Assembly (NCBI GenBank): GCA_046331465.1
Contig: JAXLQV010000003.1
Location: 1,344,420-1,408,419, forward strand
Reading direction: 5' to 3'
Length of the DNA: 64,000 bases
Source of the DNA: Thermoanaerobaculia bacterium
GTDB taxonomy: Bacteria; Acidobacteriota; Thermoanaerobaculia; UBA5066
In this document: positions 8,380-36,847 of the stretch, one piece after another
How the letters are laid out: each line of letters opens with the position of its first letter
Position numbering within the stretch: the stretch's first letter is position 1
Program-made: the position numbers and the translations under genes
Notes under the pieces: model-generated
Databases searched by the model: none
What the model saw: the letters and a program-made list of their open reading frames with translations, nothing else
What the model was told of the DNA's origin: nothing

Positions 8380-8787
8380 TCAGCCTTTCTCGTATCGGAT
8401 CGCGACCGCGACGATCTGCCGGCCGTAGATCGGCGTGTGGTACCTCACCCACCACCCGCCGGTGACGTAGGTCCCGATCCGCTTCGTCCTGTCCTGGACG
8501 ACGACCGCCGCCTCGGCGCCGAGCTTCGCGGCCTCCTCCCGGAGGGCCTTCTCGATCTCGTCCGTCTTCGCGCCGTCGGACGGGGAGAGGAAGACCTCGC
8601 CGAGCCTCACGTGAGGGCGCTTCGGCTCGCGCCGGAGGATCTCGACCGAGGCCGGGGCCGTCGGGGCGACCTGCGGGACGCCCAGGTAGCGCTCCGAGGC
8701 GACGTCGACGGTCGCGCAGGCGGAGAGGGACGCGGCGAGGGCGGCCGCGAGGAGGGCGAGGGCGCGGCGGGAAGGGGCGGGTTTCAT
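8380..8787 (-). CDS. Small lipoprotein of unknown function
   Basis: ATG at 8785-8787 within ORF 8380..8919; MKPAPSRRALALLAAALAASLSAC lipobox-type signal; 135 aa. Confidence 0.6.
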   Translation of the reverse strand: MKPAPSRRALALLAAALAASLSACATVDVASERYLGVPQVAPTAPASVEILRREPKRPHVRLGEVFLSPSDGAKTDEIEKALREEAAKLGAEAAVVVQDRTKRIGTYVTGGWWVRYHTPIYGRQIVAVAIRYEKG

Positions 8788-26535: not shown

Positions 26536-28389
26536 TCACGGGGCGACCATCGCCTCCCAGACGGCGCGCGACATCTTCCGCGTCGCCTCGACGACCGCCT
26601 TCCGCCCCTCTTCGTTCGCGCCGAAGTCGGTCGCGAGGAGGACGAGGACGTACTCGCGCCCGTCGGGGAGGCGGACGACGGCCGAGTCGTGCTGCACCTT
26701 CGAGATGGTGCCGGTCTTGTGCGCGACGACGGCGCCCGCCTGCTTCGGGATGCCGGCCGGGATCTGGTCGTTGAACTCCTGCGCCGCGAGGATCTCGAAC
26801 GCGATGCGGCGCGACTCGGCCGAGAGCTTCGGCGTCCTCACGGCGGCCTCCATCAGCGCGGCCAGCCCGTCGGCGTCCGTCTCGTTCGAGATCCCGGCCT
26901 CATAGGCCTTCGTGTCCTCGACCATCCTCCGCACCTTCAGGGTCGGCGCGCCCAGCGCGTCGACGAAGCGCTGGACGTCCTTCGGCGGGCAGAGGCCGAG
27001 CATCAGGTTCGTCGCGACGTTCGAGGAGCGGACGATCATCTCCCGGGCGACGAAGTCGAGCCGCGCCGTCCCGCCGAGGAAGGGCGCGATCCGGTCATCG
27101 CCCCCCTTCTCGAGCTCGACGCGGAACGCGGAGCCGTCGACCATGCTCGGGAAGCAGTCGACGACGGGGACGCCGGTCGAGAGGGAGAGCGACCCCTCGT
27201 CGATCCTCCGGAGCGCCTCGAGGAGGACGGCCGTCTTCATCGTCGACGCCGCGTGCATCACGGTCGCCGCGTTCCGCTTCACCGTCACGCCGGTGCCGAG
27301 GTCCTTCACGACGATCCCGAACGTCGCCTTCGTCCCGGCGGCGATCGCGTCGAGCTCCTTCCCGAGCGCCTCGGCCTTCGCCTTCGTCAGGCCGGAGGGG
27401 CGCGGGGCGCCGGGGAGGGCGGCGAGGCGGCGGGCGTAGCGGAAGCGGGGCGCGAGCCGCTCGCTCTCGAAGGCCGTCTCCTTCGTCGACGGCACGCCGT
27501 ACTGCGTCGCCTGGAGGACCTCGCCGTCGCCCGCCCAGAACGCGACGTGGTCGATCTTCTCGGGAGTGCCGAAGAAGAGGAGGTCGCCCGGGGCGAGCTG
27601 GTCGCGCCGCACGGGGACGAGCTGCGGGTCGCGGAAGCACATCTCGGAGCTGTTGCGGAGGAGGAGGACCCCGTGCCTCTCGAGGACGCGCCAGACGAGG
27701 CCGGAGCAGTCGAAGCCCCACGGCGTCGTCCCGCCCCAGGTGTAGGGGGCGCCGAGGAAGCGGCGGGCCATCGCGAGCCAGGAGGCGGGGTCGAGGACGG
27801 GGGGCGCCTCGCGCGGACGCTCTGGGGCGACGTCGTCCGCCGAGACGAAGCCGTTCCGCCCGTCGGGGAGGAGGACCTCGCGCCAGGCGTGCTTCTCGGC
27901 CTCGAGCGTCCGGAGGCCTCCGAGCCGCGCGCCGAGCGGCGCGGTCGCGAGCGGGGGGGATTTCTCGAAGCTCGGCTCGCGGTAGACGTGCGCGAGGTTC
28001 GACGTCACCTCGAGCGGCTCCGCCGACGGGTCGGGGACCCCGGGGCGGAGGGCCGCGGCCTCGATCCAGCCGCGCGAGCCCGAACGGAGCTTCGCCCAGA
28101 CGAATCGCCCCTCGGCGCGAGAGGTCTCCACGGTCTCGCCGAGGATCGCCTGGTCGTCCACCGGCGCGAGCGTCTCCGGCCGCACGAGGAGGTTCGCGAA
28201 CGGGACGACGACGACCGCGGCGGAGGGGGCGGCCGCCTGCGGGCCGGGAGCCTGAGGGGCTGCGGCCGGAGCCGCGGCCTTCGACGCGGCCGTCGTCGCG
28301 GCCGGTGGCGTCTGCGCCGCGGCGGAGAGGGCGAGGAGGAACGCGAGGGGCGCGGCGAGGTGCGGCCGGGGAGCGCGGCGACGGCTCAT
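26536..28389 (-). CDS. Secreted tri-domain fusion: SH3b-like + NlpC/P60 (C40) peptidoglycan endopeptidase + class-A beta-lactamase-like serine hydrolase domain
   Basis: ATG at 28387-28389 in ORF 26536..29547; signal peptide; NlpC/P60 motifs GAPYTWGG...GFDCSGLV...GDLLFF...HVAF; C-terminal domain with class-A motifs STMK (SxxK), SSNVATN (SDN-like), KTG. Confidence 0.8.
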   Translation of the reverse strand: MSRRRAPRPHLAAPLAFLLALSAAAQTPPAATTAASKAAAPAAAPQAPGPQAAAPSAAVVVVPFANLLVRPETLAPVDDQAILGETVETSRAEGRFVWAKLRSGSRGWIEAAALRPGVPDPSAEPLEVTSNLAHVYREPSFEKSPPLATAPLGARLGGLRTLEAEKHAWREVLLPDGRNGFVSADDVAPERPREAPPVLDPASWLAMARRFLGAPYTWGGTTPWGFDCSGLVWRVLERHGVLLLRNSSEMCFRDPQLVPVRRDQLAPGDLLFFGTPEKIDHVAFWAGDGEVLQATQYGVPSTKETAFESERLAPRFRYARRLAALPGAPRPSGLTKAKAEALGKELDAIAAGTKATFGIVVKDLGTGVTVKRNAATVMHAASTMKTAVLLEALRRIDEGSLSLSTGVPVVDCFPSMVDGSAFRVELEKGGDDRIAPFLGGTARLDFVAREMIVRSSNVATNLMLGLCPPKDVQRFVDALGAPTLKVRRMVEDTKAYEAGISNETDADGLAALMEAAVRTPKLSAESRRIAFEILAAQEFNDQIPAGIPKQAGAVVAHKTGTISKVQHDSAVVRLPDGREYVLVLLATDFGANEEGRKAVVEATRKMSRAVWEAMVAP

Positions 28390-28407
28390 CGTGGGGATAA
28401 TCGTCGC

Positions 28408-29541
28408 ATGACCACGCCGCTGTCGCGCCGCGACCTCCTCGCCGTCTCCGGCTCCGTCGCCGCCTCCGCCCTCCTCCCGCGCCTCGCCGAGGCCGCGGCT
28501 CCGGCTCCCGCCGCCGCGACCGCGGCGACGCTCGACCTCGCGCCGATGCTCCTGAAGCTCCGGCACACCTGGACGATCTCGCGAAACTCCTCGAACGAGA
28601 AGAAGAACGGCCTCCTGACGCTGACGGCGGGCGGGATCACCGGCTACGGCGAGACCGCGGCGAACGTCCGCTACGGCCAGAGCTGGGAGAGCGGCGAGGC
28701 GGCCTTCGCGAAGGTGAAGGCGGCCTGCGCGGGGCTCTCGCCGTGGGAGCACCTCGCCTGGCTCGAGCGGGCCGAGGAGGCCGCGGGGGGCGACTCGCAG
28801 GTCGTCGCGGCGCTCGACATGGCACTCTGGGACTGGAAGGGAAAGGCGGTCGGCCAGCCCGTCTGGAGGCTCCTCGGCATCCCGACGGGGCGGATGGCGC
28901 AGACGACGTTCTCGATCGGCATCGACACGGCCGAGGCGATGAAGGAGAAGGTGAAGGAGGCGGAGCCCTATCCCCTCCTGAAGGTGAAGGTCGGGCTCGC
29001 GAACGACGAGGAGAACGTCACGGCGATCCGCTCCGTCACGAAGAAGCCGATCCGCGTCGACGCGAACGAGGGGTGGAAGAGCGCCGAGGAGGCGCTGAAG
29101 AAGATCGCCTGGCTGAAGACGATGGGGATCGAGTTCGTCGAGCAGCCGCTCCCGGCGGCGAAGAACGCCGAGATGAAGGCGGTGAAGGCCGGGTCGGCCC
29201 TCCCGCTCGTCGCGGACGAGTCGGTCCTCCACGTGAAGGACGTCCCCTCGCTCGTCGGCCTCTTCGACGGCGTGAACGCCAAGCTCGCCAAGTGCGGCGG
29301 GATCACCCGCGCGTACGAGCTCGCCGCGCTCGGCCGGGCGCTCGGCTTCAAGCTGATGCTCGGCTGCATGATCGAGTCGTCGCTCGGCATCGCGGCGGCC
29401 GTCGCCGTCGCGCCGCTCTTCGACTGGCTCGACCTCGACGGGAACCTGCTCGTCGCGAACGACCCGTGGAAGGGGCTGACGCTGAAGGAGGGGCGCTGGG
29501 AGCTCCCGGCGGCGCCGGGCCTCGGCGTCGTGCCGGCCTGA
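28408..29541 (+). CDS. L-Ala-D/L-Glu (dipeptide) epimerase, enolase superfamily (YkfB/YcjG-like), with predicted Tat signal peptide
   Basis: ATG 28408; RRDLLAVSGSVAASALLPRLAEAAAPA Tat-type signal; MR/MLE fold with conserved KVK(V)G, D-x-N-E, E, D, K metal/base residues; 377 aa. Confidence 0.8.
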   Translation: MTTPLSRRDLLAVSGSVAASALLPRLAEAAAPAPAAATAATLDLAPMLLKLRHTWTISRNSSNEKKNGLLTLTAGGITGYGETAANVRYGQSWESGEAAFAKVKAACAGLSPWEHLAWLERAEEAAGGDSQVVAALDMALWDWKGKAVGQPVWRLLGIPTGRMAQTTFSIGIDTAEAMKEKVKEAEPYPLLKVKVGLANDEENVTAIRSVTKKPIRVDANEGWKSAEEALKKIAWLKTMGIEFVEQPLPAAKNAEMKAVKAGSALPLVADESVLHVKDVPSLVGLFDGVNAKLAKCGGITRAYELAALGRALGFKLMLGCMIESSLGIAAAVAVAPLFDWLDLDGNLLVANDPWKGLTLKEGRWELPAAPGLGVVPA

Positions 29542-29560
29542 CGGCACCCGCGACGGCCTC

Positions 29561-31177
29561 CTAGGGGGCCTCGTCCTCCTCCGGCGGCGGGACGAACGGG
29601 CGGAGCTTTTCCGCGAGCTCGAGACCGCGCCGGATCACCTCGTTCCAGGGGAAGAGGGCGCCGGGGTCGGGCTTGCGCCCGGGGGCGACGTGCTGGTGGC
29701 CGGCGATCCAGGGGGCCTCGAGGCCGAGCTGCGCCGTCAGGACGCCGACGACCCGCACGACCGTCTCGACCTGGGCGCGGGTGAAGGGATAGCGGTTTCC
29801 GTCGCCCGTGATCTCGACCCCGACCGAGTCGCGGTTCAGGACGGTGCGGCCGTGGAGGTCCGAGGAGCCCGCGTGCCACGCCCGGTGCTCGAGCGAGACG
29901 AACTGCCAGAGCCGGCCGCTCCTCCCGACGAGGAAGTGCGAGGAGACGAAGCTTGCCGGGTCGAGGAAGAGCGAGATGCACGTCTCGTCCTCGTCCATCG
30001 CGGTGTGGTGGAGGACGAGCGTGTCGAGCGGCCGGATCTTCTCGGGGTGCCACCCTTCCCAGAAGGAGTTCGGCATCGGGACCAGGCAGCCGTCGTTCGG
30101 GTCGCCGCCCGCCCTCTCCCAGAGCTCCCAGAAGAGGCGGTCCGCGGGGCGGAAGACGCGCTCGAGGCCGGGCGCACCTCCCCTCGCCTCGAGCGGCGTC
30201 ACCTCGAGGCGCGCGAGCGCCGGCGCGAGGGGCCGTTCCGCCGAGAGGTCGATGCGGGGGCGGTCGGGGAGGTCCCGCGACCACTCGTCGACGATCTCCC
30301 TCGCGATCTCGCCCATCGCGCGGTTCGCGCTCACGGCGGCGCCGGGCTTGGTCGGGATCCGGTCGGCGAACATCGCGAAGACGAACGTCCCCTTCGGCGT
30401 CGCGAGGACCCCCGAGTCGACCCTCACTCCGCTCATCGTCCCGGTCTTGCCGGCCCAGGAGGTCCCGGGGCGCGAGGCGAGGAGGCGCGGGATCCGGTCG
30501 GCCGTCCTCGGGTTCGCCGCGAGGCGCATCGCGACGCGGCTCGACTCCCTGTCGAGGAGCGTCCCGGTCGCGGCGCGACGCCAGAGCTCGGCGGTGTCGC
30601 GCGGCGTCATCCGGCCGAGGGGCTTCCAGGGGACGTCCTCCTCGGGGGAGCCGAGGTCGGGGATCCGCCCGACGAGCTCGATCCCGGCGAGCCCGAGCTC
30701 CGCCATGCGGCAGTTCACCGCCTCGGCGCCGAAGGCGTCAATGAAGTGGTTCGCGGCGGTGTTGTCCGAGAGCGCCATCATGAGACGCAGGAGGTCCCTC
30801 TCCGTCGGCGCGAGCCACGGCTCGAACTCGTCGAGGACCCCCGAGCCGGCGGCCACGGATCGGGGCGTCAGGCGCCAGCGCTGCTCGAGGTCGAGCGTCC
30901 CCTCGCGCTGCCGCGCGAGCGCCTCGACGAGGAGCGCGAGCTTGACGACGCTCGCCCCCTCGAACGTCTCCGTGTCCCGCCACCGGAGCTCCCGGCCGCT
31001 CTCGACGTGGAGGGCGACGATCCCCATCCGCGCGCCGCTCTCCTCCGCCCGCCGCGCGACGCGCCGGGCGAGCGTCTCGGACGCGGGGCGAACGGAGAGG
31101 CCCGGGGGTGGGGCGGTGGAGCAGGCGGCGAGGAGGAGGAGGAGCGCGGCGAGCGCCGCGGCCGGGCGGCAGGTCAC
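29561..31177 (-). CDS. Lipoprotein fusion: class-A beta-lactamase-like domain + N-acetylmuramoyl-L-alanine amidase (Amidase_2, AmpD/AmiD-like)
   Basis: GTG 31175-31177 overlapping GGDEF gene stop; lipobox LLLLLAACS; N-domain SVVK / SDNTAAN / KTGT class-A motifs; C-domain AmpD signature (HHTA...AWHAG...GVEI...GHQHVAPGRKPDPG). Confidence 0.8.
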   Translation of the reverse strand: MTCRPAAALAALLLLLAACSTAPPPGLSVRPASETLARRVARRAEESGARMGIVALHVESGRELRWRDTETFEGASVVKLALLVEALARQREGTLDLEQRWRLTPRSVAAGSGVLDEFEPWLAPTERDLLRLMMALSDNTAANHFIDAFGAEAVNCRMAELGLAGIELVGRIPDLGSPEEDVPWKPLGRMTPRDTAELWRRAATGTLLDRESSRVAMRLAANPRTADRIPRLLASRPGTSWAGKTGTMSGVRVDSGVLATPKGTFVFAMFADRIPTKPGAAVSANRAMGEIAREIVDEWSRDLPDRPRIDLSAERPLAPALARLEVTPLEARGGAPGLERVFRPADRLFWELWERAGGDPNDGCLVPMPNSFWEGWHPEKIRPLDTLVLHHTAMDEDETCISLFLDPASFVSSHFLVGRSGRLWQFVSLEHRAWHAGSSDLHGRTVLNRDSVGVEITGDGNRYPFTRAQVETVVRVVGVLTAQLGLEAPWIAGHQHVAPGRKPDPGALFPWNEVIRRGLELAEKLRPFVPPPEEDEAP

Positions 31178-32967
31178 GCGGGGGCGTCCTCCTCGGGCGG
31201 GGCGGAGACGATCCGGTTCTTGCCGGTCGTCTTCGCCTCGTAGAGCGCGGCGTCGGCGCGCTTGACGACCACGTCCGCGTGCGGCGCGGCGGGGTGGGTC
31301 GTCGTCGCGACGCCGGCGCTGATCGTGACCTGGAGGCGGAGCCGCTCGGCGGCGCTCCCGTCGCCCGCCGGGAAGCGCGGGAGGTCGTAGAAGGCGTCCG
31401 TCTCGACGGCGTGGCGGATCCGCTCGGCGACGATCGCGGCGCCCGCGGCGTCGGTGTCGGGGAGGACGGCCAGGAACTCCTCGCCCCCCCAGCGCCCGAC
31501 GAGGTCGCAGGAGCGGAGCGCGGAGCGGAGGACGAGCGCCGTCCGCCGGAGCATCTCGTCGCCCGTGTGGTGGCCGTGCTCGTCGTTGAAGACCGAGAAG
31601 TCGTCGATGTCGATCATGACGACGGAGAGGGGCGGCGCCGGCCGCATCTCCTCGGCCTCCCCCCGGGAGAGGGCGAAGGCGCCGGAACGCCGGCGGAGCC
31701 GCTCCCACTCGCGCGCCAGCGCCTCCTCCGTGGCGCGCCGGTTCGGCAGGCCGGTCAGGTAGTCGGTCCTCGCGGAGGTGACGAGCGTCGTCACGTCGTG
31801 GAACGTCGCGAGCTGGAGGAGCCCGGAGGGGAGCCGGACGGCCCGGATCGCCATCTGCACGTCCCTCCGCTCGCCGCCCGGCAGGGCGAGCGCCGTCTCG
31901 AACGCCTCGGGCGACGCCGAGGCGAGGAGCCGCGCGAGGCGCGCCCGCTCGGGGGGCGGGACGAGCTCGAGGAAGAGCCGGCGCCCGACGAGCTCGGCCC
32001 GCGTCGTCCCGGCGAGGCGGACCGCCGCGTCGTTGGCGTGGACGACGAACCCGTCGCGGAGCGTCACGAGGGCCTGCCCGGCGTCGGAGAGCGCCTCCAT
32101 GAGCGCCGTCTTCTCGAGGAGCTCGGCACGGCGGCGCGCCTCCTCGCGTCCCCGCTGGAGCGCCTGGCCCACCAGCGGGGCGAGCGTCCCGAGGAGCTCG
32201 GCGTCGGCCGCGTCGTGCTCGACGCCTCCCGAGGCCCAGACGACGAGGGCGCCGAGGTCCGCGCCGAGCGGGGCGCCGAGCCACGAGGTCGACGGGACCG
32301 GAGCGGAGGCGAGCCGGCCCGCGGCCCGCTCCGCCTCCCAGGCCGCGGGACCGAGGCTGGCCGGCTCCCCGTCCGCGAGGATCCGCCCGGCCACGGCCCA
32401 CATCGCGTCCCGCACGTCCTCCCCGAGGCTCTCGGGAGCCGAGTAGAGGAGCTCGACGCGCGCCGTCTCGGGGTCGAGGCCGACGACGGCGAAGCAGGGC
32501 GCCGGGACGAGCCGCGCGAGGAGCGCGTGCGCGACCGGGAAGAGCTCGGCCGGCGACGGCGACTCGCGGACGCTCCGGAGGAGCGCGAGGAGGCAGTCGT
32601 GGACGGCCGCCGCCCGCCGCTCCGCCGTCACGTCGCGCGCCGCGACGGCGAGCCCTCCCGCCGTCGGCGAGAGAGAGAGCTCGGCGAAGAAGATCGACCC
32701 GTCGACCCGGCGGTGCCGGACGACGCCCTGGAACCCCTCCGCGAGCGGTTCCGGGAGGGGGGGCGGCGCCCCCGGCCGGGAAACGACGAGGTCGCGGAGG
32801 AGGACGTTCCCGAGGGAGCCGTCGGGAGCCCCGTGCAGCGCGTGGAACGCCGCGTTCGCCCACGTGATGCGGCCCGAAGCGTCCGCGACGGCGAGTGCCG
32901 TCCCGGCCGCGGCGAAGGCGCGCGCGAAGACCTCTCCCGCCGTCATCGTTCCGTTCGTCGCGAGCAT
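31174..32967 (-). CDS. Diguanylate cyclase (GGDEF) with N-terminal PAS/GAF-type sensor domains
   Basis: 597 aa; RWGGEEF active-site motif, I-site-like RxxD; stop overlaps downstream amidase start. Confidence 0.8.
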   Translation of the reverse strand: MLATNGTMTAGEVFARAFAAAGTALAVADASGRITWANAAFHALHGAPDGSLGNVLLRDLVVSRPGAPPPLPEPLAEGFQGVVRHRRVDGSIFFAELSLSPTAGGLAVAARDVTAERRAAAVHDCLLALLRSVRESPSPAELFPVAHALLARLVPAPCFAVVGLDPETARVELLYSAPESLGEDVRDAMWAVAGRILADGEPASLGPAAWEAERAAGRLASAPVPSTSWLGAPLGADLGALVVWASGGVEHDAADAELLGTLAPLVGQALQRGREEARRRAELLEKTALMEALSDAGQALVTLRDGFVVHANDAAVRLAGTTRAELVGRRLFLELVPPPERARLARLLASASPEAFETALALPGGERRDVQMAIRAVRLPSGLLQLATFHDVTTLVTSARTDYLTGLPNRRATEEALAREWERLRRRSGAFALSRGEAEEMRPAPPLSVVMIDIDDFSVFNDEHGHHTGDEMLRRTALVLRSALRSCDLVGRWGGEEFLAVLPDTDAAGAAIVAERIRHAVETDAFYDLPRFPAGDGSAAERLRLQVTISAGVATTTHPAAPHADVVVKRADAALYEAKTTGKNRIVSAPPEEDAPA

Positions 32968-33011: not shown

Positions 33012-34154
33012 ATGAATGGGTTGACGGCCGAGACACCTCCCTCCCCGGTCCCCTCCGGCCGGCTCGCCGCCCTCGACCTCTTCCGGGGCGCGACGGTGGC
33101 CGCGATGCTCTTCGTGAACAACCCGGGGAGCTGGTCGCACATCCTGCCGCCGTTCGAGCACGCCGAGTGGAACGGCTGCACCCCGACGGACCTCGTCTTC
33201 CCGTTCTTCCTCTTCATCGTCGGCACGGCCTCGGTCCTCTCGCTCGGGAAGCGCGCCGCTCAGGGGGCGAGCCGCGGGGCGCTCGCGCGGCACGCGGTGC
33301 GGCGGGGCGCGACGATCGTCCTCGTCGGCTGGGCGCTCACCGCCTTCCCGTTCAACCTGCAGCGTCTCCTGCACCTCCGGATCCCGGGCGTCCTCCCGCG
33401 CATCGGGGTCGTCTACGCGCTCGGCGCGCTGCTCCTCGTCGCCGCGCCGGTGCGCCGGAAGGCCCTCTTCCTCGGACTCGCCACGGCGCTCCTCCTCGCC
33501 CTCCACACGGCGCTCCTCTCCCTGCCGGGCTACGACCTGACGATCGAGGGGAACCTCCAGACGGCGATCGACCTCGCGCTCCTGAAGGGGCACCTCTGGA
33601 AGAAGGCGTGGGACCCGGAGGGGGTCCTCTCCACGCTGACCGCCCTCGCGACGATGCTGACGGGAGCGCTCACCGGGCTCCTCCTGACGTCGAAGGCCTC
33701 CCTGAAGGAGCGGCTCGCCGGCCTCGGCGCCGCGGGAGCCGCGGGCGTCGCGGCTGGGCTCGCGTGGCAGGCGCTCGGCCTCCCGCTCAACAAGGGGCTC
33801 TGGACCGGCTCCTACGTCCTCTTCACCTCGGGCGCGGCGTGCCTCTCTCTCCTCGCCGCGATCGCCGTCGTCGACCTCCTCGGCGTGAGGAGGCCCTTCG
33901 CCCCGCTCTTCACGTTCGGGACGAACCCGCTCCTCGCGTTCGTCCTCTCGGGCCTCCTCGCGAAGATCCTCGGCATGGTGAAGGTGGCCGGGGCGGACGG
34001 CCGCGTGTCGCTCACCTCGTTCCTCTACGAGCGGGTCTTCCTCCGCGTCGGCGACCCGTACCTCGCCTCGCATCTCCAGGCGCTCGCGTTCCTCGCGGTC
34101 ATCTGGGCGGTCCTCCGGTACTGCGAGAGGCGCGGCTGGTACTGGAAGGTCTGA
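33012..34154 (+). CDS. DUF1624 / HGSNAT-like (heparan-alpha-glucosaminide N-acetyltransferase catalytic-domain-like; NagX-like) multi-pass membrane acyltransferase family protein
   Basis: ATG 33012; LDLFRG motif near N-terminus, ~10 TM helices, typical of acyltransferase-3/DUF1624 NagX-like proteins found in amino-sugar loci. Confidence 0.65.
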   Translation: MNGLTAETPPSPVPSGRLAALDLFRGATVAAMLFVNNPGSWSHILPPFEHAEWNGCTPTDLVFPFFLFIVGTASVLSLGKRAAQGASRGALARHAVRRGATIVLVGWALTAFPFNLQRLLHLRIPGVLPRIGVVYALGALLLVAAPVRRKALFLGLATALLLALHTALLSLPGYDLTIEGNLQTAIDLALLKGHLWKKAWDPEGVLSTLTALATMLTGALTGLLLTSKASLKERLAGLGAAGAAGVAAGLAWQALGLPLNKGLWTGSYVLFTSGAACLSLLAAIAVVDLLGVRRPFAPLFTFGTNPLLAFVLSGLLAKILGMVKVAGADGRVSLTSFLYERVFLRVGDPYLASHLQALAFLAVIWAVLRYCERRGWYWKV

Positions 34155-34155
34155 C

Positions 34156-35157
34156 TCAGCCGGAGGCGAGGAGCCGGCGCGGCGTCTCCGAGGCGGCGTG
34201 CCGCGCCTCGTCGAACGTCGCCGCGCCGCAGGCAGCGAGCCTCTCCACGCAGTCGTCGAGGAGGGCGACGCTCCCCGCGAGGCCGCCCGAGGCGTTCCGG
34301 ACGGCCCCGGCGGAGACCGTGAGCGTCTCGCCCCAGACGGAGTAGTCCCCGTCGGCGAGGCCGGCGCAGGGCGCCGCGTCGCTGATCAGGACGAACCCCT
34401 CCGGCCCCTTGCAGCGCCGGACGAGGGCGAGCATCTCGGGGGAGAGGTGGTGGAGGTCGGCGATGACGTCGACCGTCGCGCCGTCGCGGAGGAGCCCCCA
34501 GCCGACCGGACCGGCGTCGCGGTGGTGGAGCGGCTTCATCGCGTTGCCGAAGTGGGTCATGTGCCGGGCGCCGCGCGCGAGCGCCGCGTCGAGCGTCGCG
34601 ACGTCGGCCTCGGTGTGGCCGAGGGCGACGACGAAGCCGCGGCGGACGAACGCCGAGACGAGGTCGAGGCCCCCCGGGATCTCGGGGGCCATCGTGACGA
34701 CGGGGCGGCCGGGGAGCTCGCCGACGGCGTCGAAGAACGCGTCGACGACCCGCGGGTCGCACCCGTCGAGGAGGCACGCGCGGTGGAGGGCGCCCGAGCG
34801 GTTCGGCGAGACGAACGGCCCCTCGAGGTGGATCCCGAGCGGCATCGCGCCGCGCCCGTCCCCCTCGCTCCGCGAGCGGACCCACGCGGAGAGGCGCGCG
34901 AGGAGCGGCGCGAGGTCGCCGAGGGGGACCGGGACGAGCGTCGGGACGAAGCCGGTCACGCCGCGCGCCTCGAGGCCGAGGGCGAGGCGGTCGAGCTCGG
35001 CCTCGCCCGCGGTCAGGACGTCGACGCCGAAGGCGCCGTGGATGTGGAGGTCGACGAGGCCGGCGGCGCTCAGGACGGCTCCTCCTCGAGGGCGCGTGCG
35101 ACGTTGCCGTTCCGCGCGGCGATCCACTCGCGCGCCTTCTCGAGAGGGAGGCTCCAC
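34156..35157 (-). CDS. nagA: N-acetylglucosamine-6-phosphate deacetylase (NagA), short-N-terminus variant; start uncertain (GTG 35157 or 35127)
   Basis: Metal-binding DLHIHG...HLEGP...HTEA...HFGNAM...D motifs of amidohydrolase NagA; N-terminal ~25 aa Arg-rich and overlaps murQ 3' end. Confidence 0.75.
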   Translation of the reverse strand: MEPPSREGARVDRRAERQRRTRPRGGAVLSAAGLVDLHIHGAFGVDVLTAGEAELDRLALGLEARGVTGFVPTLVPVPLGDLAPLLARLSAWVRSRSEGDGRGAMPLGIHLEGPFVSPNRSGALHRACLLDGCDPRVVDAFFDAVGELPGRPVVTMAPEIPGGLDLVSAFVRRGFVVALGHTEADVATLDAALARGARHMTHFGNAMKPLHHRDAGPVGWGLLRDGATVDVIADLHHLSPEMLALVRRCKGPEGFVLISDAAPCAGLADGDYSVWGETLTVSAGAVRNASGGLAGSVALLDDCVERLAACGAATFDEARHAASETPRRLLASG

Positions 35158-35915
35158 CGCTCCGAGACGAGTGCCAGGGGGAGCTCCCAGTCGGCCTTAA
35201 CGAGGAGCCGCTCGGCGGGCTCGGGGGGGAGCGCGAGGAGGCGGCCGAGGATGTCGATCGCGCGCCGCTTCAGCTTCGCGTTCGTCGGGCGCATCGCGAC
35301 CATCTCGCCCCGCCAGACGAGGCCGCGCCGCGCCATGACGGCCGTCGAGAGCATGTTGAGGACGAGCTTCTGCGCCGTCCCCGCCTTCATCCGCGTCGAG
35401 CCGCGGAGCACCTCGGGCCCCGTCTCGACGACGAGGGCGAGGTCGGCGATCGACGCGAGCCGCGAGCCGGGCACGCCGACGAGGGCGACCGCGAGCGCCC
35501 CGATTCCCTTCCCCCAGCGGAGCGCGCCGGCGACGTACGGCGTCGCGCCGCTCGCGGCGATCCCGAGGACGACGTCGCGCGCCGTGACGCCCGCCATCTT
35601 CACGTCCTCGGCCCCCTGCGCCTCGTCGTCCTCCGCCCCCTCGACGGCGTGGACGAGCGCCTCGCTTCCGCCGGCGACGATCCCGGTGACGAGGCGGGGG
35701 GGGACGCCGAAGGTCGGCGGGAGCTCCGAGGCGTCGAGGACGCCGAGCCGTCCGCTCGTCCCGGCGCCGGCGTTGATCCACTTCCCGCCGGCGTCGAGGC
35801 GCGCGGCGATCTCGTCGGCGGCGTGCGCGACCTCCGGGAGGATCCTCCCGACGGCGCGGACCGCCTCCAGGTCGGCCTCGTGGATCGCCGCGAGGAGGGC
35901 GAGCGTGTCGGTCAA
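35070..35915 (-). CDS. murQ: N-acetylmuramic acid 6-phosphate etherase MurQ (SIS domain)
   Basis: 281 aa; near-identical core motifs to E. coli MurQ (GAGTSGRLGVLDASELPPTFGV, HAVEGAEDD, RMKAGTAQKLVLNMLST); ATG overlaps kinase stop. Confidence 0.9.
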   Translation of the reverse strand: MTDTLALLAAIHEADLEAVRAVGRILPEVAHAADEIAARLDAGGKWINAGAGTSGRLGVLDASELPPTFGVPPRLVTGIVAGGSEALVHAVEGAEDDEAQGAEDVKMAGVTARDVVLGIAASGATPYVAGALRWGKGIGALAVALVGVPGSRLASIADLALVVETGPEVLRGSTRMKAGTAQKLVLNMLSTAVMARRGLVWRGEMVAMRPTNAKLKRRAIDILGRLLALPPEPAERLLVKADWELPLALVSERWSLPLEKAREWIAARNGNVARALEEEPS

Positions 35916-36847
35916 GGCGTCCCCTCGGCGAGGGCGAGCCGGATCGCGCCGATCTCCGGGACGTGCGCGGGCGGACCGAGGCGCGCCCGCGGCGCGCCCG
36001 CGAGGAGCCGCTCGCGCAGCGGGGCGAGGACGAGCTCGCCCGCGACGAAGACGCCGCCGACGGTCGCCACCGTCACCTCGTCCTGCGCGATGCCGAGCTT
36101 GCGGAGGACGGTGAGCGACGTGAGCGCGAGCTCGCCCGCCGCCCAGCGGAGGATCTCGAGGGCGATCCCGTCGCCGTCCCGGGCGGCGTCGAGGACGACC
36201 GGGAAGTAGGCCGCCACGTCGGTCGGCCCCGCGTCGGGACGGAAGAGCCTCCGCACCATCTCGACGGCCGACCGCGTCCCCTCCGTCGAGTGGAGCCCCT
36301 CGCGCATCTTCGTCCGCGGTCCGCGCCCGTCGACGTCGCGCGCGACGGCGGCGAGGCCGCGCCGCGCGATTTCGGAGGCGGAGCCCTCGTCGCCGATGAG
36401 CGCGCCCCAGCCGCCCGCCCGCTCCTCGAGGCCGTGGGAGTTCCGGCCGAAGCAGATCGCCCCCGTCCCCGCGATGAGGACGGCGCCCGAGTCGGCGACC
36501 GGGTCGCGGAGCGCCCCGGCGAGCGCGATCCGCGCGTCCGTCGTGACCCGGATCCTGCCGGCGCCGTAGACGGCCTCGAGCGCCGAGACGAGGCGCCCCT
36601 TCATCGCCGACGCCTCGACGCCGGCGAGGCCGCAGGAGACGACGGCGACGTCGGCGCGCGCCGCACCGGCCGCCTCGAGGGCATCGTCGACGGCCTCCGT
36701 GACGGACTGGACGAGGCGCGGGACGGGGACGGTCGAGGCGTTCGCGGGGCCCGACGCGCCGCGGCCGAGGGCGAGGAGGTCGGAGGCGGTGACGACGGCG
36801 CGGGTCCGGGTGCCGCCGCCGTCGACGCCGACGTAGAGGCTGGGCAT
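35912..36847 (-). CDS. BadF/BadG/BcrA/BcrD-type ATPase family sugar kinase, predicted N-acetylglucosamine/N-acetylmuramic acid kinase (MurK/NagK-like)
   Basis: ATG 36845-36847; LYVGVDGGGTRTR phosphate-1 motif; ASKHA fold; genomic coupling to murQ. Confidence 0.75.
   Translation of the reverse strand: MPSLYVGVDGGGTRTRAVVTASDLLALGRGASGPANASTVPVPRLVQSVTEAVDDALEAAGAARADVAVVSCGLAGVEASAMKGRLVSALEAVYGAGRIRVTTDARIALAGALRDPVADSGAVLIAGTGAICFGRNSHGLEERAGGWGALIGDEGSASEIARRGLAAVARDVDGRGPRTKMREGLHSTEGTRSAVEMVRRLFRPDAGPTDVAAYFPVVLDAARDGDGIALEILRWAAGELALTSLTVLRKLGIAQDEVTVATVGGVFVAGELVLAPLRERLLAGAPRARLGPPAHVPEIGAIRLALAEGTP

Follow-up and report, generated by a model that had tools for sequence, protein, structure and literature searches.

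A putative Tat-exported dipeptide epimerase of the enolase superfamily with a conserved twin-arginine signal in Acidobacteriota and other phyla

In the textbook scheme of peptidoglycan recycling, L-Ala-D/L-Glu epimerization is a cytoplasmic step performed by YcjG or YkfB, and the recycling literature that we found also places this reaction in the cytoplasm; to our knowledge, the enzymes of the enolase superfamily are regarded as cytosolic. A dipeptide epimerase gene from a Thermoanaerobaculia (Acidobacteriota) MAG, located in a 64,000-nucleotide stretch of DNA (hereafter, the window), raises the question of whether this step can occur on the other side of the membrane. The reading that we favor, with a probability of roughly 0.6, is that this gene encodes a Tat-exported L-Ala-D/L-Glu epimerase that would act in an extracytoplasmic salvage route for peptidoglycan peptides.

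The ORF starts with the ATG at 28408, ends with the TGA at 29539-29541, and encodes 377 aa; its translation begins with MTTPLSRRDLLAVSGSVAASALLPRLAEAAAP and contains the Pfam domains MR_MLE_N and MR_MLE_C, so that the epimerase ORF and the N-terminus quoted in the original prediction were recovered. The identical 377-aa product was called on three Logan contigs and appears in an NCBI record, database record P0001 for this protein being titled "MAG: dipeptide epimerase [Thermoanaerobaculia bacterium]". AF2 modeling gave a pLDDT of 91 (above 90 for residues 41-377), and all top 50 Foldseek matches belong to the enolase superfamily, the best ones being dipeptide epimerases. The best matches, 3IJI/3IJQ (target-normalized TM-score, TMt, 0.94; rmsd 1.9 A; 39% identity), represent BT1313 of Bacteroides thetaiotaomicron (PDB 3IJI/3IJL/3IJQ), which is also the closest solved structure in a phmmer search (238 bits), has the same catalytic residues, and was crystallized with L-Ala-D-Glu (3IJI/3IJQ). 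The metal ligands D218, E245, and D270 and the catalytic lysines, namely K192/K194 of the K-x-K motif after strand 2 and K292 after strand 6, are present, align with the equivalent residues of 3IJI and 1JPD, and are invariant in 107-108 of the 108 homologs. D342-L-D344 aligns with "DLDG" of 3IJI and 1JPD, and the D-x-D motif is found in all 106 homologs (out of 108) that are ungapped at this position; the D-x-D after strand 8 binds the alpha-ammonium group of the dipeptide. R59 ("ISRNS"), present as Arg in 102 of 108 homologs, occupies the column of the YcjG Arg in "IARGS" and is replaced by Thr in BT1313; it might be the basic residue of the 20s loop that accommodates the side-chain carboxylate of Glu.

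The same MLE-subgroup fold and the same K-x-K / D-E-D / K / D-x-D residues are shared with YcjG of Escherichia coli (1JPD) and YkfB of Bacillus subtilis (1JPM/1TKK), which are ~28-32% identical to the window protein but are cytoplasmic enzymes without an N-terminal extension. YcjG and YkfB are the L-Ala-D/L-Glu epimerases of murein-peptide recycling, with ykfABCD-type linkage to YkfC. Because all NCBIfam equivalog cut-offs were missed (YcjG, PRK15129, 152 bits versus 343; A_G_epim_Thtga, 116 versus 500), the window protein appears to belong to a divergent clade rather than to the YcjG equivalogs. Homology and genomic context indicate that the product is most probably an L-Ala-D/L-Glu epimerase.

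The region preceding the catalytic domains consists of an n-region containing the twin arginine, the h-region LLAVSGSVAASALLP, and the c-region R-L-A-E-A, followed by a linker. As is typical of Tat substrates, the first ~35 residues include an S/T-R-R-x-F/L-L-type motif where the n-region meets the h-region; an uncharged h-region of moderate hydrophobicity and no fewer than ~13 residues follows, and then an A-x-A site. Here, the h-region comprises 15 uncharged residues (L10-P24) with a mean Kyte-Doolittle value of 1.76, versus 2.42 in the neighboring lipoprotein signal, and the A27-E28-A29 site, spotted by eye, suggests cleavage after A29 according to the AxA rule. In the AF2 model, this region has a pLDDT below 50 and forms a single helix at residues 7-27. 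The Pfam TAT_signal model (PF10518) matches residues 5-24 with E = 0.0072, its 16.7 bits falling short of the 22.7-bit gathering score; at E <= 0.05, it matches 53 of 108 homologs, with a best E-value of 3e-4, and an NCBIfam scan of the epimerase reported no match to a Tat-signal model. The signal was originally described as a textbook one, which holds for the motif, the h-region, and the AxA site but is slightly generous given the subthreshold Pfam score.

Among the 108 homologs, R7 is invariant and R8 is Arg in 106 and Lys in 2, whereas the flanking residues vary. Because the motif is conserved across phyla while its Arg codons differ synonymously (CGC, CGT, CGA, and CGG), sequence comparison indicates that it is held by purifying selection. 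In a broader set of 163 distinct N-termini, 157 contain the pattern [S/T]-R-[R/K]-x-[L/F/W]-[L/I/F], and the uncharged run has a median length of 15 residues; 26 of these 157 motifs are the R-K variant, which is, as far as we know, unusual as a natural Tat motif. A six-frame scan of the window for the motif combined with an uncharged run in a plausible gene recovered only the epimerase and one more ORF, other matches being set aside by eye as spurious-looking ORFs. This rarity, together with the residue conservation, rules out a chance occurrence of the motif. A tblastn search with TatA sequences produced no match in ~0.8 Mb of the window and related loci, a sample that covers a small fraction of any one genome and is hence uninformative.

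In a neighbor-joining tree, the signal-bearing sequences form a single clade of 62 leaves that covers Acidobacteriota, Calditrichota, KSB1, Planctomycetota, Ignavibacteriales, and Zhuqueibacterota, among others. Five orthologs, from Calditrichota, KSB1, and one Cytophagia-labeled MAG, have an added lipobox Cys, an independent hallmark of export. About 120 of the 186 relatives, as well as BT1313/3IJI and YcjG/1JPD, begin at the equivalent of residues 45-49 of the window protein and therefore lack the signal, in agreement with the original claim that characterized dipeptide epimerases are cytoplasmic. A separate Bacteroidota-like cluster includes P0128, with a plain Sec signal, and P0162, with a lipoprotein signal, both without a twin arginine. 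Within this cluster, P0128 has no YkfC neighbor, and P0195 is followed by a gene of the PF00144 beta-lactamase family.

The epimerase gene is flanked by genes for two exported cell wall enzymes (Table 1), as had been proposed for the NlpC/P60 and amidase neighbors. The NlpC/P60 domain of the divergent neighbor is of the YkfC / dipeptidyl-peptidase VI type; in sequence comparison with the PDB, the N-terminal half of this protein best matched 3NPF, 3PVQ/4R0K (B. thetaiotaomicron), and 3H41, and the C-terminal half best matched Tll2115 (2J7V). We take 3PVQ/4R0K to be the BtYkfC/BT1314 of PMC4600125. The convergent neighbor, a lipoprotein with a GTG start at 31177-31179 and GAGGAGGA upstream, contains an Amidase_2 domain of the AmpD-like MurNAc-L-Ala amidase type. 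A YkfC-type gene adjoins the epimerase gene in most of 80 related loci. Of the 52 complete YkfC-type partners, 45 have a hydrophobic signal of the Sec or lipoprotein type, and we saw no conserved RR motif common to these partner signals. The epimerases of the related loci, in contrast, always retain RR or RK and have a less hydrophobic h-region than the YkfC-type partner. Given the conserved twin-arginine signal and the exported cell wall-degrading neighbors, the D-to-L conversion of the dipeptide probably takes place outside the cytoplasm. No peptide transporter or dipeptidase that would complete the pathway was found in the locus, and none recurs after the epimerase across 30 distant loci, VanX-like ORFs aside; a D-Ala-D-Ala dipeptidase-like ORF of this kind, named by eye, follows the epimerase in two Calditrichota loci.

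Table 1. Coordinates of the epimerase gene, its parts, and other features of the window
Feature	Position	Strand	Basis or remarks
Dipeptide epimerase gene	28408..29541	+	ORF, Pfam, NCBIfam, identity to P0001, Logan gene calls
Predicted signal peptide, residues 1-29	28408..28494	+	Sequence, AF2, Pfam TAT_signal
Twin-arginine motif S6-R7-R8-D9-L10-L11	28423..28440	+	Conservation among homologs
Ala/Pro-rich linker, residues 30-40	28495..28527	+	Alignment, low pLDDT; length and sequence vary among homologs
Catalytic domains (capping domain and modified TIM barrel), residues 41-377	28528..29538	+	AF2, Foldseek, conservation
In-frame internal ATG, codon 47 (rival start, would remove signal)	28546..28548	+	Rejected
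-10-like box GATAAT	28396..28401	+	6 nt upstream of ATG; conserved among related sequences
Divergent YkfC-type neighbor, 617 aa	26536..28389	-	Signal peptide, SH3b domains, NlpC/P60, C-terminal PBP-A / class-A-beta-lactamase-like domain (Pfam)
Convergent lipoprotein neighbor, 538 aa	29561..31179	-	LLAAC lipobox, Beta-lactamase2, Amidase_2 (Pfam, NCBIfam, gene call)
Lipoprotein-like ORF with comparable motif	8380-8787	-	Six-frame scan
Cytoplasmic amino-sugar genes, same island	33012..36847		Gene calls, profile scores
NagX-like	33012-34154	+	Below equivalog cut-off
NagA-like	34156-35127	-	Below equivalog cut-off
MurQ etherase	35070-35915	-	328 bits versus PRK05441 cut-off 168
NagK-like BadF/G kinase	35912-36847	-	Below equivalog cut-off

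The enzyme would be cytoplasmic if translation started at codon 47, the twin-arginine region being untranslated or spurious, or if the signal were a nonfunctional relic. Codon 47 corresponds to the N-terminus of the cytoplasmic family members, and spurious long upstream ORFs arise in high-GC genomes, the reading frame in this case being open upstream as far as 26689. However, the alignment column of Met47 contains Leu in 56 of the 108 homologs (Met in 44 and Val in 3), and GC3 switches exactly at 28408, from 0.72 in the in-frame upstream region to 0.96 in codons 1-46. No Shine-Dalgarno-like sequence was seen by eye before the ATG of codon 47. ATAAT begins at -11 from the upstream ATG in 25 of 31 related sequences and lies within -15 to -10 in all 31 (30 of the upstream 40-mers being distinct). 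In the entire window (73% GC), there are just three occurrences of ATAAT/ATTAT. A strict sigma-70 scan of 28100-29800 revealed no full promoter, so, on the strength of the comparative conservation, we read the GATAAT box as a -10-only element, the probable promoter of a leaderless mRNA. On a cursory reading, the remaining two ATAAT/ATTAT occurrences are also upstream of gene starts. The Leu-rich column, the GC3 switch, and the conserved box, along with the concordant gene calls, rule out the start at codon 47, a downstream start that removes the twin-arginine region having been named at the outset as a threat to the prediction, and comparative evidence places translation initiation at the ATG at 28408. 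A relic signal would not persist across phyla, and here the N-terminal motif is conserved as protein through synonymous codon changes and orthologs bearing a lipobox exist; we therefore consider a cytoplasmic location very improbable. Export via Sec, or retention of the N-terminus as an uncleaved membrane anchor that leaves the enzyme outside, would reduce the arginines to a mere positively charged n-region. This possibility is compatible with the subthreshold Pfam TAT_signal score and with the R-K variants, which are common in Calditrichota and KSB1, and the signals of P0128 and P0162 imply that the fold is apparently exportable without a twin arginine. Nevertheless, Sec n-regions keep no specific hexapeptide, whereas this family retains S/T at -1, R at 0, R/K at +1, L/F/W at +3, and L/I/F at +4 from phylum to phylum, although the remaining signal residues differ; furthermore, the co-located YkfC-type signals are far more hydrophobic, and no shared motif was noted among them. 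Altogether, Tat appears to be the preferred route, and Sec export or anchoring is unlikely.

An exported enzyme could also act on a different substrate, either as an N-acyl-D-Glu racemase resembling DgcA or as an epimerase of another D-amino-acid dipeptide. The N-acetyl-D-glutamate racemase DgcA (NF042940), which comes from the same branch of the superfamily and likewise acts at a D-Glu stereocenter, is the best NCBIfam model for the window protein (235 bits, compared with 152 for YcjG, both under the respective cut-offs); in addition, dipeptide epimerases reportedly have diverse specificities. However, the score is far from the DgcA cut-off of 400, the context consists of peptidoglycan-peptide hydrolases, and the called neighbors of the epimerase (YkfC-type, amidase, GGDEF, and NagX-like genes) include no GNAT-type (DgcN-like) gene; on this score and context, we rejected membership in the DgcA family. 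The alpha-ammonium group bound by the invariant D-x-D motif is absent from N-acyl substrates, the closest structure was solved with L-Ala-D-Glu, and the conserved genomic partner, a YkfC-type enzyme, produces L-Ala-D-Glu. All these features argue for L-Ala-D/L-Glu as the substrate pair and leave another specificity rather improbable.

The closest known arrangement is that of B. thetaiotaomicron, in which BT1313 is encoded next to the YkfC-type BT1314, so that the pair of an epimerase and a YkfC-type enzyme is the same as in the window. The two loci differ in that the 338-residue chain of BT1313 starts 5 residues before the barrel, without a signal, whereas the window protein carries a 40-residue twin-arginine signal and linker, and in that the YkfC-type enzyme of the window, unlike BT1314, is fused to a PBP-A-like domain and transcribed divergently. 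For B. thetaiotaomicron, epimerization by BT1313 has been proposed to precede import (Xu et al. 2015, PMC4600125). With respect to the export route, the likeness of the window epimerase to the amidases AmiA and AmiC consists in the cell wall role and the Tat-type signal, the fold being unrelated and the reaction being hydrolysis. These E. coli proteins are Tat-exported cell wall enzymes without redox cofactors and have signals of the S/T-R-R-x-F/L-L type. Vibrio BsrV, a periplasmic PLP-dependent broad-spectrum amino acid racemase with a Sec signal, provides a precedent for periplasmic stereo-inversion but differs in fold and cofactor and acts on free amino acids.

Under the favored reading, the epimerase would fold in the cytoplasm, be exported by Tat, and act in the cell envelope or periplasm. 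Stem peptides would be released from MurNAc by the AmpD-like amidase, an exported lipoprotein, the terminal D-Ala would probably be trimmed by the beta-lactamase-fold (PBP-A-like) domains, and the YkfC-type endopeptidase would cleave the bond between gamma-D-Glu and the diamino acid, yielding L-Ala-D-Glu. The epimerase would then presumably run in the direction from L-Ala-D-Glu to L-Ala-L-Glu, an ordinary L,L-dipeptide suitable for generic peptide transporters and peptidases, while the products of the neighboring genes, MurQ, NagK, and NagA, would process the sugars inside the cell. A bolder and more tentative version, to which we give somewhat less than even odds, is that the signal-bearing sequences represent an ancient clade of exported enzymes of the enolase superfamily that spans several phyla, that the route from stem peptides to L,L-dipeptides is complete outside the cytoplasm, and that the R-K Tat signal is natural and functional. 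If so, these would be, as far as our searches show, the first members of the enolase superfamily with dedicated Tat or lipoprotein signals, and the S/T-R-K-x-F-L variant of Calditrichota and KSB1 would be a natural functional R-K Tat signal. The route would then also take exogenous peptidoglycan peptides from dead cells, with L,L-dipeptides made before uptake.

Our literature searches turned up no Tat substrate of the enolase superfamily, and no title or abstract in the literature on dipeptide/Glu epimerases, signal peptides, Tat, and the periplasm described an exported epimerase, most matches being considered at the title and abstract level. If the favored reading is true, a Mg-dependent TIM-barrel epimerase would broaden the range of proteins that use Tat, and its signal would offer a simple test system for export. 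The exported epimerase would also lend substance to the step order proposed for Bacteroides (Xu et al. 2015). More generally, the combination of an exported epimerase and an exported YkfC-type enzyme in little-studied soil and sediment phyla suggests that the entire breakdown of stem peptides, including the stereo-inversion that renders D-Glu usable, may occur in the envelope. Epimerization at this location would account for the absence of a dedicated murein-peptide permease in such bacteria and would fit the scavenging of foreign cell wall debris (necromass).

The epimerase protein contains MR_MLE_N and MR_MLE_C domains (Pfam), and the database record of the identical protein reads 'MAG: dipeptide epimerase [Thermoanaerobaculia bacterium]', which assigns the window to an uncultured acidobacterium. 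The nearest solved structures are 3IJI/3IJQ, the Bacteroides thetaiotaomicron dipeptide epimerase BT1313 crystallized with L-Ala-D-Glu, both by sequence (238 bits, phmmer) and by AF2 modeling (target-normalized TM-score, TMt, 0.94; rmsd 1.9 A; 39% identity, Foldseek), followed by further dipeptide epimerases such as YkfB (1JPM) and YcjG (1JPD). The AF2 model, built from a 108-sequence alignment (mean pLDDT 91), has a confident fold that begins at residue 41. Alignments identified the residues K192-x-K194 and K292, the metal ligands D218, E245, and D270, and the D-x-D motif D342-x-D344, all invariant or nearly so in the 108 homologues. The D-x-D motif of dipeptide epimerases binds the dipeptide ammonium group. 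Together with R59, which aligns with the Arg of the YcjG 'IARGS' loop, this residue set supports a predicted dipeptide epimerase whose substrate would have Glu at its C-terminus. The best NCBIfam model was DgcA (N-acetyl-D-Glu racemase; 235 bits vs a cut-off of 400), followed by the YcjG-type L-Ala-D/L-Glu epimerase (152 bits vs 343). Because all equivalog matches fell below the cut-off, we place the protein in a divergent clade within the dipeptide epimerases rather than among the orthologues of YcjG or YkfB.

The N-terminus reads M-T-T-P-L-S-R-R-D-L-L, followed by 13 more uncharged residues and R-L-A-E-A|A-A-P; in the AF2 model, residues 1-40 are of low confidence and form a lone helix (7-27) and a linker (28-40). 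The Pfam TAT_signal model matches residues 5-24 below threshold (16.7 bits vs a gathering score of 22.7, E = 0.0072) and 53 of the 108 homologues at E <= 0.05. Among 163 distinct N-terminal extensions drawn from homologues and related loci, 157 contain R-[RK]-x-hydrophobic-hydrophobic within the first 25 residues. Counted over these 157, position -1 is S or T in 139, position 0 is invariably R, position +1 is R in 131 and K in 26, position +3 is L, F, or W in 154, and position +4 is L, I, or F in 153. After the motif comes an uncharged stretch with a median length of 15 residues, and the remainder of the signal is not conserved. A comparable motif in a plausible gene of the window was found only in the epimerase and in one lipoprotein-like ORF. 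The latter starts MKPAPSRRALALLAAALAASLSAC, in which a signal containing RR is combined with a lipobox; apart from the epimerase, it is the one plausible N-terminus of Tat-like or lipoprotein type that was found in the window.

The original prediction of a Tat-exported epimerase had named a better-supported downstream start codon as a point on which it could fail. An in-frame ATG does exist at codon 47, exactly where signal-less relatives begin: most relatives below 50% identity are ~340 aa long, with the first residue at query positions 42-49, and chain residues 6 of 3IJI and 17 of 1JPD (YcjG) pair with query residues 45 and 52, respectively. Four independent lines of evidence nevertheless exclude it as the start. 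Among the 120 nearest homologues in the database (61-96% identity), 113 have an N-terminal extension with the RR motif, and at residue 47 of the 108-homologue alignment, 56 sequences have Leu, 44 Met, and 3 Val. GC3 reaches 0.96 over codons 1-46 and 0.99 over the remaining codons, compared with 0.72 in the same frame just 5' of the ATG at 28408. Both Arg codons of the motif differ synonymously between relatives (CGC, CGT, CGA, and CGG). The fourth line is an ATAAT box: in a set of 31 related sequences, whose upstream 40-mers include 30 distinct ones, it always begins between -15 and -10 from the upstream ATG, and in 25 of them at -11. The same 377-aa product also appears in the gene calls of three Logan contigs. 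A cytoplasmic enzyme, resulting from an internal start or carrying a relic signal, is contradicted by these four lines and is highly improbable.

The whole 64-kb window (GC content 73%) contains only three ATAAT/ATTAT pentamers, of which the other two were also read as lying upstream of gene starts. A strict scan found no two-hexamer sigma-70 promoter. A -10 box located 6 nt from the ATG is the layout to be expected of a leaderless mRNA with the A of the ATG as its first base, and its conservation suggests that the epimerase mRNA would be leaderless. The starts of the epimerase and the divergent YkfC-type gene are 18 bp apart. GATAAT lies in this gap, with its reverse complement ATTATC 7 nt from the minus-strand ATG, and in the related loci L001-L031 the ATAAT box stands at the same position relative to the epimerase ATG; possibly, two back-to-back leaderless transcripts have one common AT-rich element.

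A one-genome-per-species scan yielded >598 loci. Among the best 80 of these, extension-bearing orthologues were found in Thermoanaerobaculia, Holophagales, Terriglobia, Solibacteraceae, and Bryobacteraceae, in Calditrichota, KSB1, Ignavibacteriales, and Zhuqueibacterota, and also in Phycisphaerae, Pirellulales, and Sedimentisphaerales. Acidobacterial and planctomycete orthologues have the form S/T-R-R-x-L/W-L; in those of Calditrichota, KSB1, Zhuqueibacterota, and some Terriglobia, S/T-R-K-Q/E-F-L/F replaces it (loci L032, L037, L038, L040, L042, L044, L045, L048, L049, L052, L053, L057, L059-L061, L063, L064, L067, L069-L074, L077, and L080). To our knowledge, natural R-K Tat signals are rare, and these orthologues may represent a lineage-specific relaxation of the twin-arginine rule. 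Another gene of L053 encodes a canonical LTRRRFLG signal. Five orthologues, from Calditrichota, KSB1, and one Cytophagia-labelled MAG (L044, L049, L053, L070, and L072), have a lipobox Cys after the h-region, an independent hallmark of export. A rough neighbour-joining tree of 186 mature domains places the signal-bearing sequences essentially in a single clade of 62 leaves, 54 of them scored RR/RK and at least two of the remaining eight with a motif missed by the classifier. About 120 relatives without a signal stand apart from this clade. Another small cluster, Bacteroidota-like, includes one protein each with an RR (P0195), Sec-type (P0128), and lipoprotein-type (P0162) signal. In locus L086, the gene of the Tat-signal epimerase P0195 (PRRAFLK) shares 4 bp with the PF00144 beta-lactamase-family gene downstream of it (class-C / DD-peptidase type). 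Here a predicted exported epimerase is paired, for the second time and independently, with an enzyme of the penicillin-binding fold.

YkfC / dipeptidyl-peptidase VI enzymes are gamma-D-Glu-diamino-acid endopeptidases with L-Ala-D-Glu as the product. The best PDB matches of the divergent neighbour belong to this family: 3NPF, 3PVQ/4R0K from B. thetaiotaomicron (which we take to be BtYkfC/BT1314 of PMC4600125), and 3H41. Its C-terminal domain most resembles the PBP-A protein Tll2115 (class-A beta-lactamase fold), a fusion kept in L001-L031. The exported NlpC/P60 and amidase proteins predicted to adjoin the epimerase are borne out by the signal peptide of the former and the lipobox of the latter. 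In each, a peptidoglycan-peptide enzyme is fused to a domain with the class-A-beta-lactamase fold (PBP-A-like), and SxxK, S-x-N, and KTG motifs are visible in both; the fused domains may be D-Ala-trimming carboxypeptidases. The amidase gene begins with a GTG and overlaps the end of the preceding diguanylate cyclase gene by 4 bp (31174-31179), implying co-transcription of a c-di-GMP synthase and a peptidoglycan amidase. In the amino-sugar cluster, MurQ scored 328 bits vs a cut-off of 168. The 323-aa NagA-like ORF aligns to its model from position 41 onward only and shares 58 nt with the MurQ gene, which may point to a wrongly called start or a truncated gene. Given these neighbours, we interpret the locus as a peptidoglycan and amino-sugar catabolic island, with export signals on the peptide-processing enzymes and none on the sugar enzymes. 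A YkfC-type gene adjoins the epimerase in most of the best 80 of >598 loci. In the Thermoanaerobaculia clade, it is divergent and carries the PBP-A-like fusion; in Calditrichota, KSB1, and Solibacteraceae, it directly precedes the epimerase gene on the same strand. In two Calditrichota loci, the convergent VanX-like ORF would be a further exported D-amino-acid peptide enzyme beside the epimerase.

Coordinates of the epimerase gene, its neighbours, and features of related loci
Sequence	Position	Strand	Feature
Window	8380-8787	-	Small lipoprotein-like ORF
Window	26536-28389	-	Divergent YkfC-type neighbour, 617 aa; signal peptide, SH3b domains, NlpC/P60
Window	28387-28410		Divergent start codons and the 18-bp gap between them, with GATAAT/ATTATC
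Window	28408-29541	+	Dipeptide epimerase, ATG-to-TGA ORF, 377 codons
Window	28546-28548	+	In-frame ATG, codon 47
Window	29561-31179	-	Convergent neighbour, 538-aa lipoprotein (LLAAC), Beta-lactamase2 + AmpD-like Amidase_2
Window	31174-32967	-	PAS-GGDEF diguanylate cyclase
Window	33012-36847		NagX-like membrane acetyltransferase, NagA-like deacetylase, MurQ etherase, BadF/G-type NagK-like kinase
L053	3806-4414	-	Gene with LTRRRFLG signal
L053	7301-7912	-	Signal-bearing VanX-type D-Ala-D-Ala dipeptidase-like ORF, named by eye
L057	7175-7816	-	Signal-bearing VanX-type D-Ala-D-Ala dipeptidase-like ORF, named by eye
L086	1602-3847		P0195 epimerase and PF00144 gene

That the epimerase specifically needs Tat is best argued from the contrast in signal type: two enzymes of the same pathway in the same cells have different signals. 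Of 52 complete YkfC-type partners, a simple hydropathy heuristic assigned 45 to strongly hydrophobic signals of the Sec or lipoprotein type, and no common RR motif was noted among them. The epimerase keeps RR/RK and a weaker h-region than its partner (mean Kyte-Doolittle hydropathy 1.52). Use of Tat appears probable from sequence. A search of the limited DNA of the window and related loci turned up nothing resembling tatA. Sec export or a membrane anchor, which would leave the enzyme extracytoplasmic all the same, is unlikely in view of this contrast. Activity on another substrate, such as N-acyl-D-Glu, for which the DgcA score is the sole point in favor, is quite unlikely, as the D-x-D motif and the genomic context speak against it.

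The analysis establishes the fold, the catalytic residues, the true start codon, the conserved export signal, and a recurring pairing with an exported YkfC-type enzyme; the steps built on them are proposed. Under Tat export of a dipeptide epimerase, the enzyme would fold in the cytoplasm and then be exported, with the signal cleaved after A29. In the envelope, stem peptides would be released by the amidase, D-Ala trimmed by the PBP-A-like domains, and L-Ala-D-Glu released by YkfC; the epimerase would then produce L-Ala-L-Glu, manageable for generic peptide uptake systems. The same order of steps has been proposed for B. thetaiotaomicron, with epimerization by BT1313 and subsequent import by BT1086 (Xu et al. 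2015, PMC4600125). Both chemistry and pathway are already known. Full-text searches, judged by titles and abstracts, in which a passing mention could be missed, found no description of an exported or Tat-dependent dipeptide epimerase or enolase-superfamily enzyme; neither the compartment nor the export signal, nor how widely the exported clade extends, appears to have been described before. Unlike the window epimerase, BT1313 has no signal, and the signal-bearing clade would provide the export signal that the scheme of Xu et al. 2015 (PMC4600125) requires.
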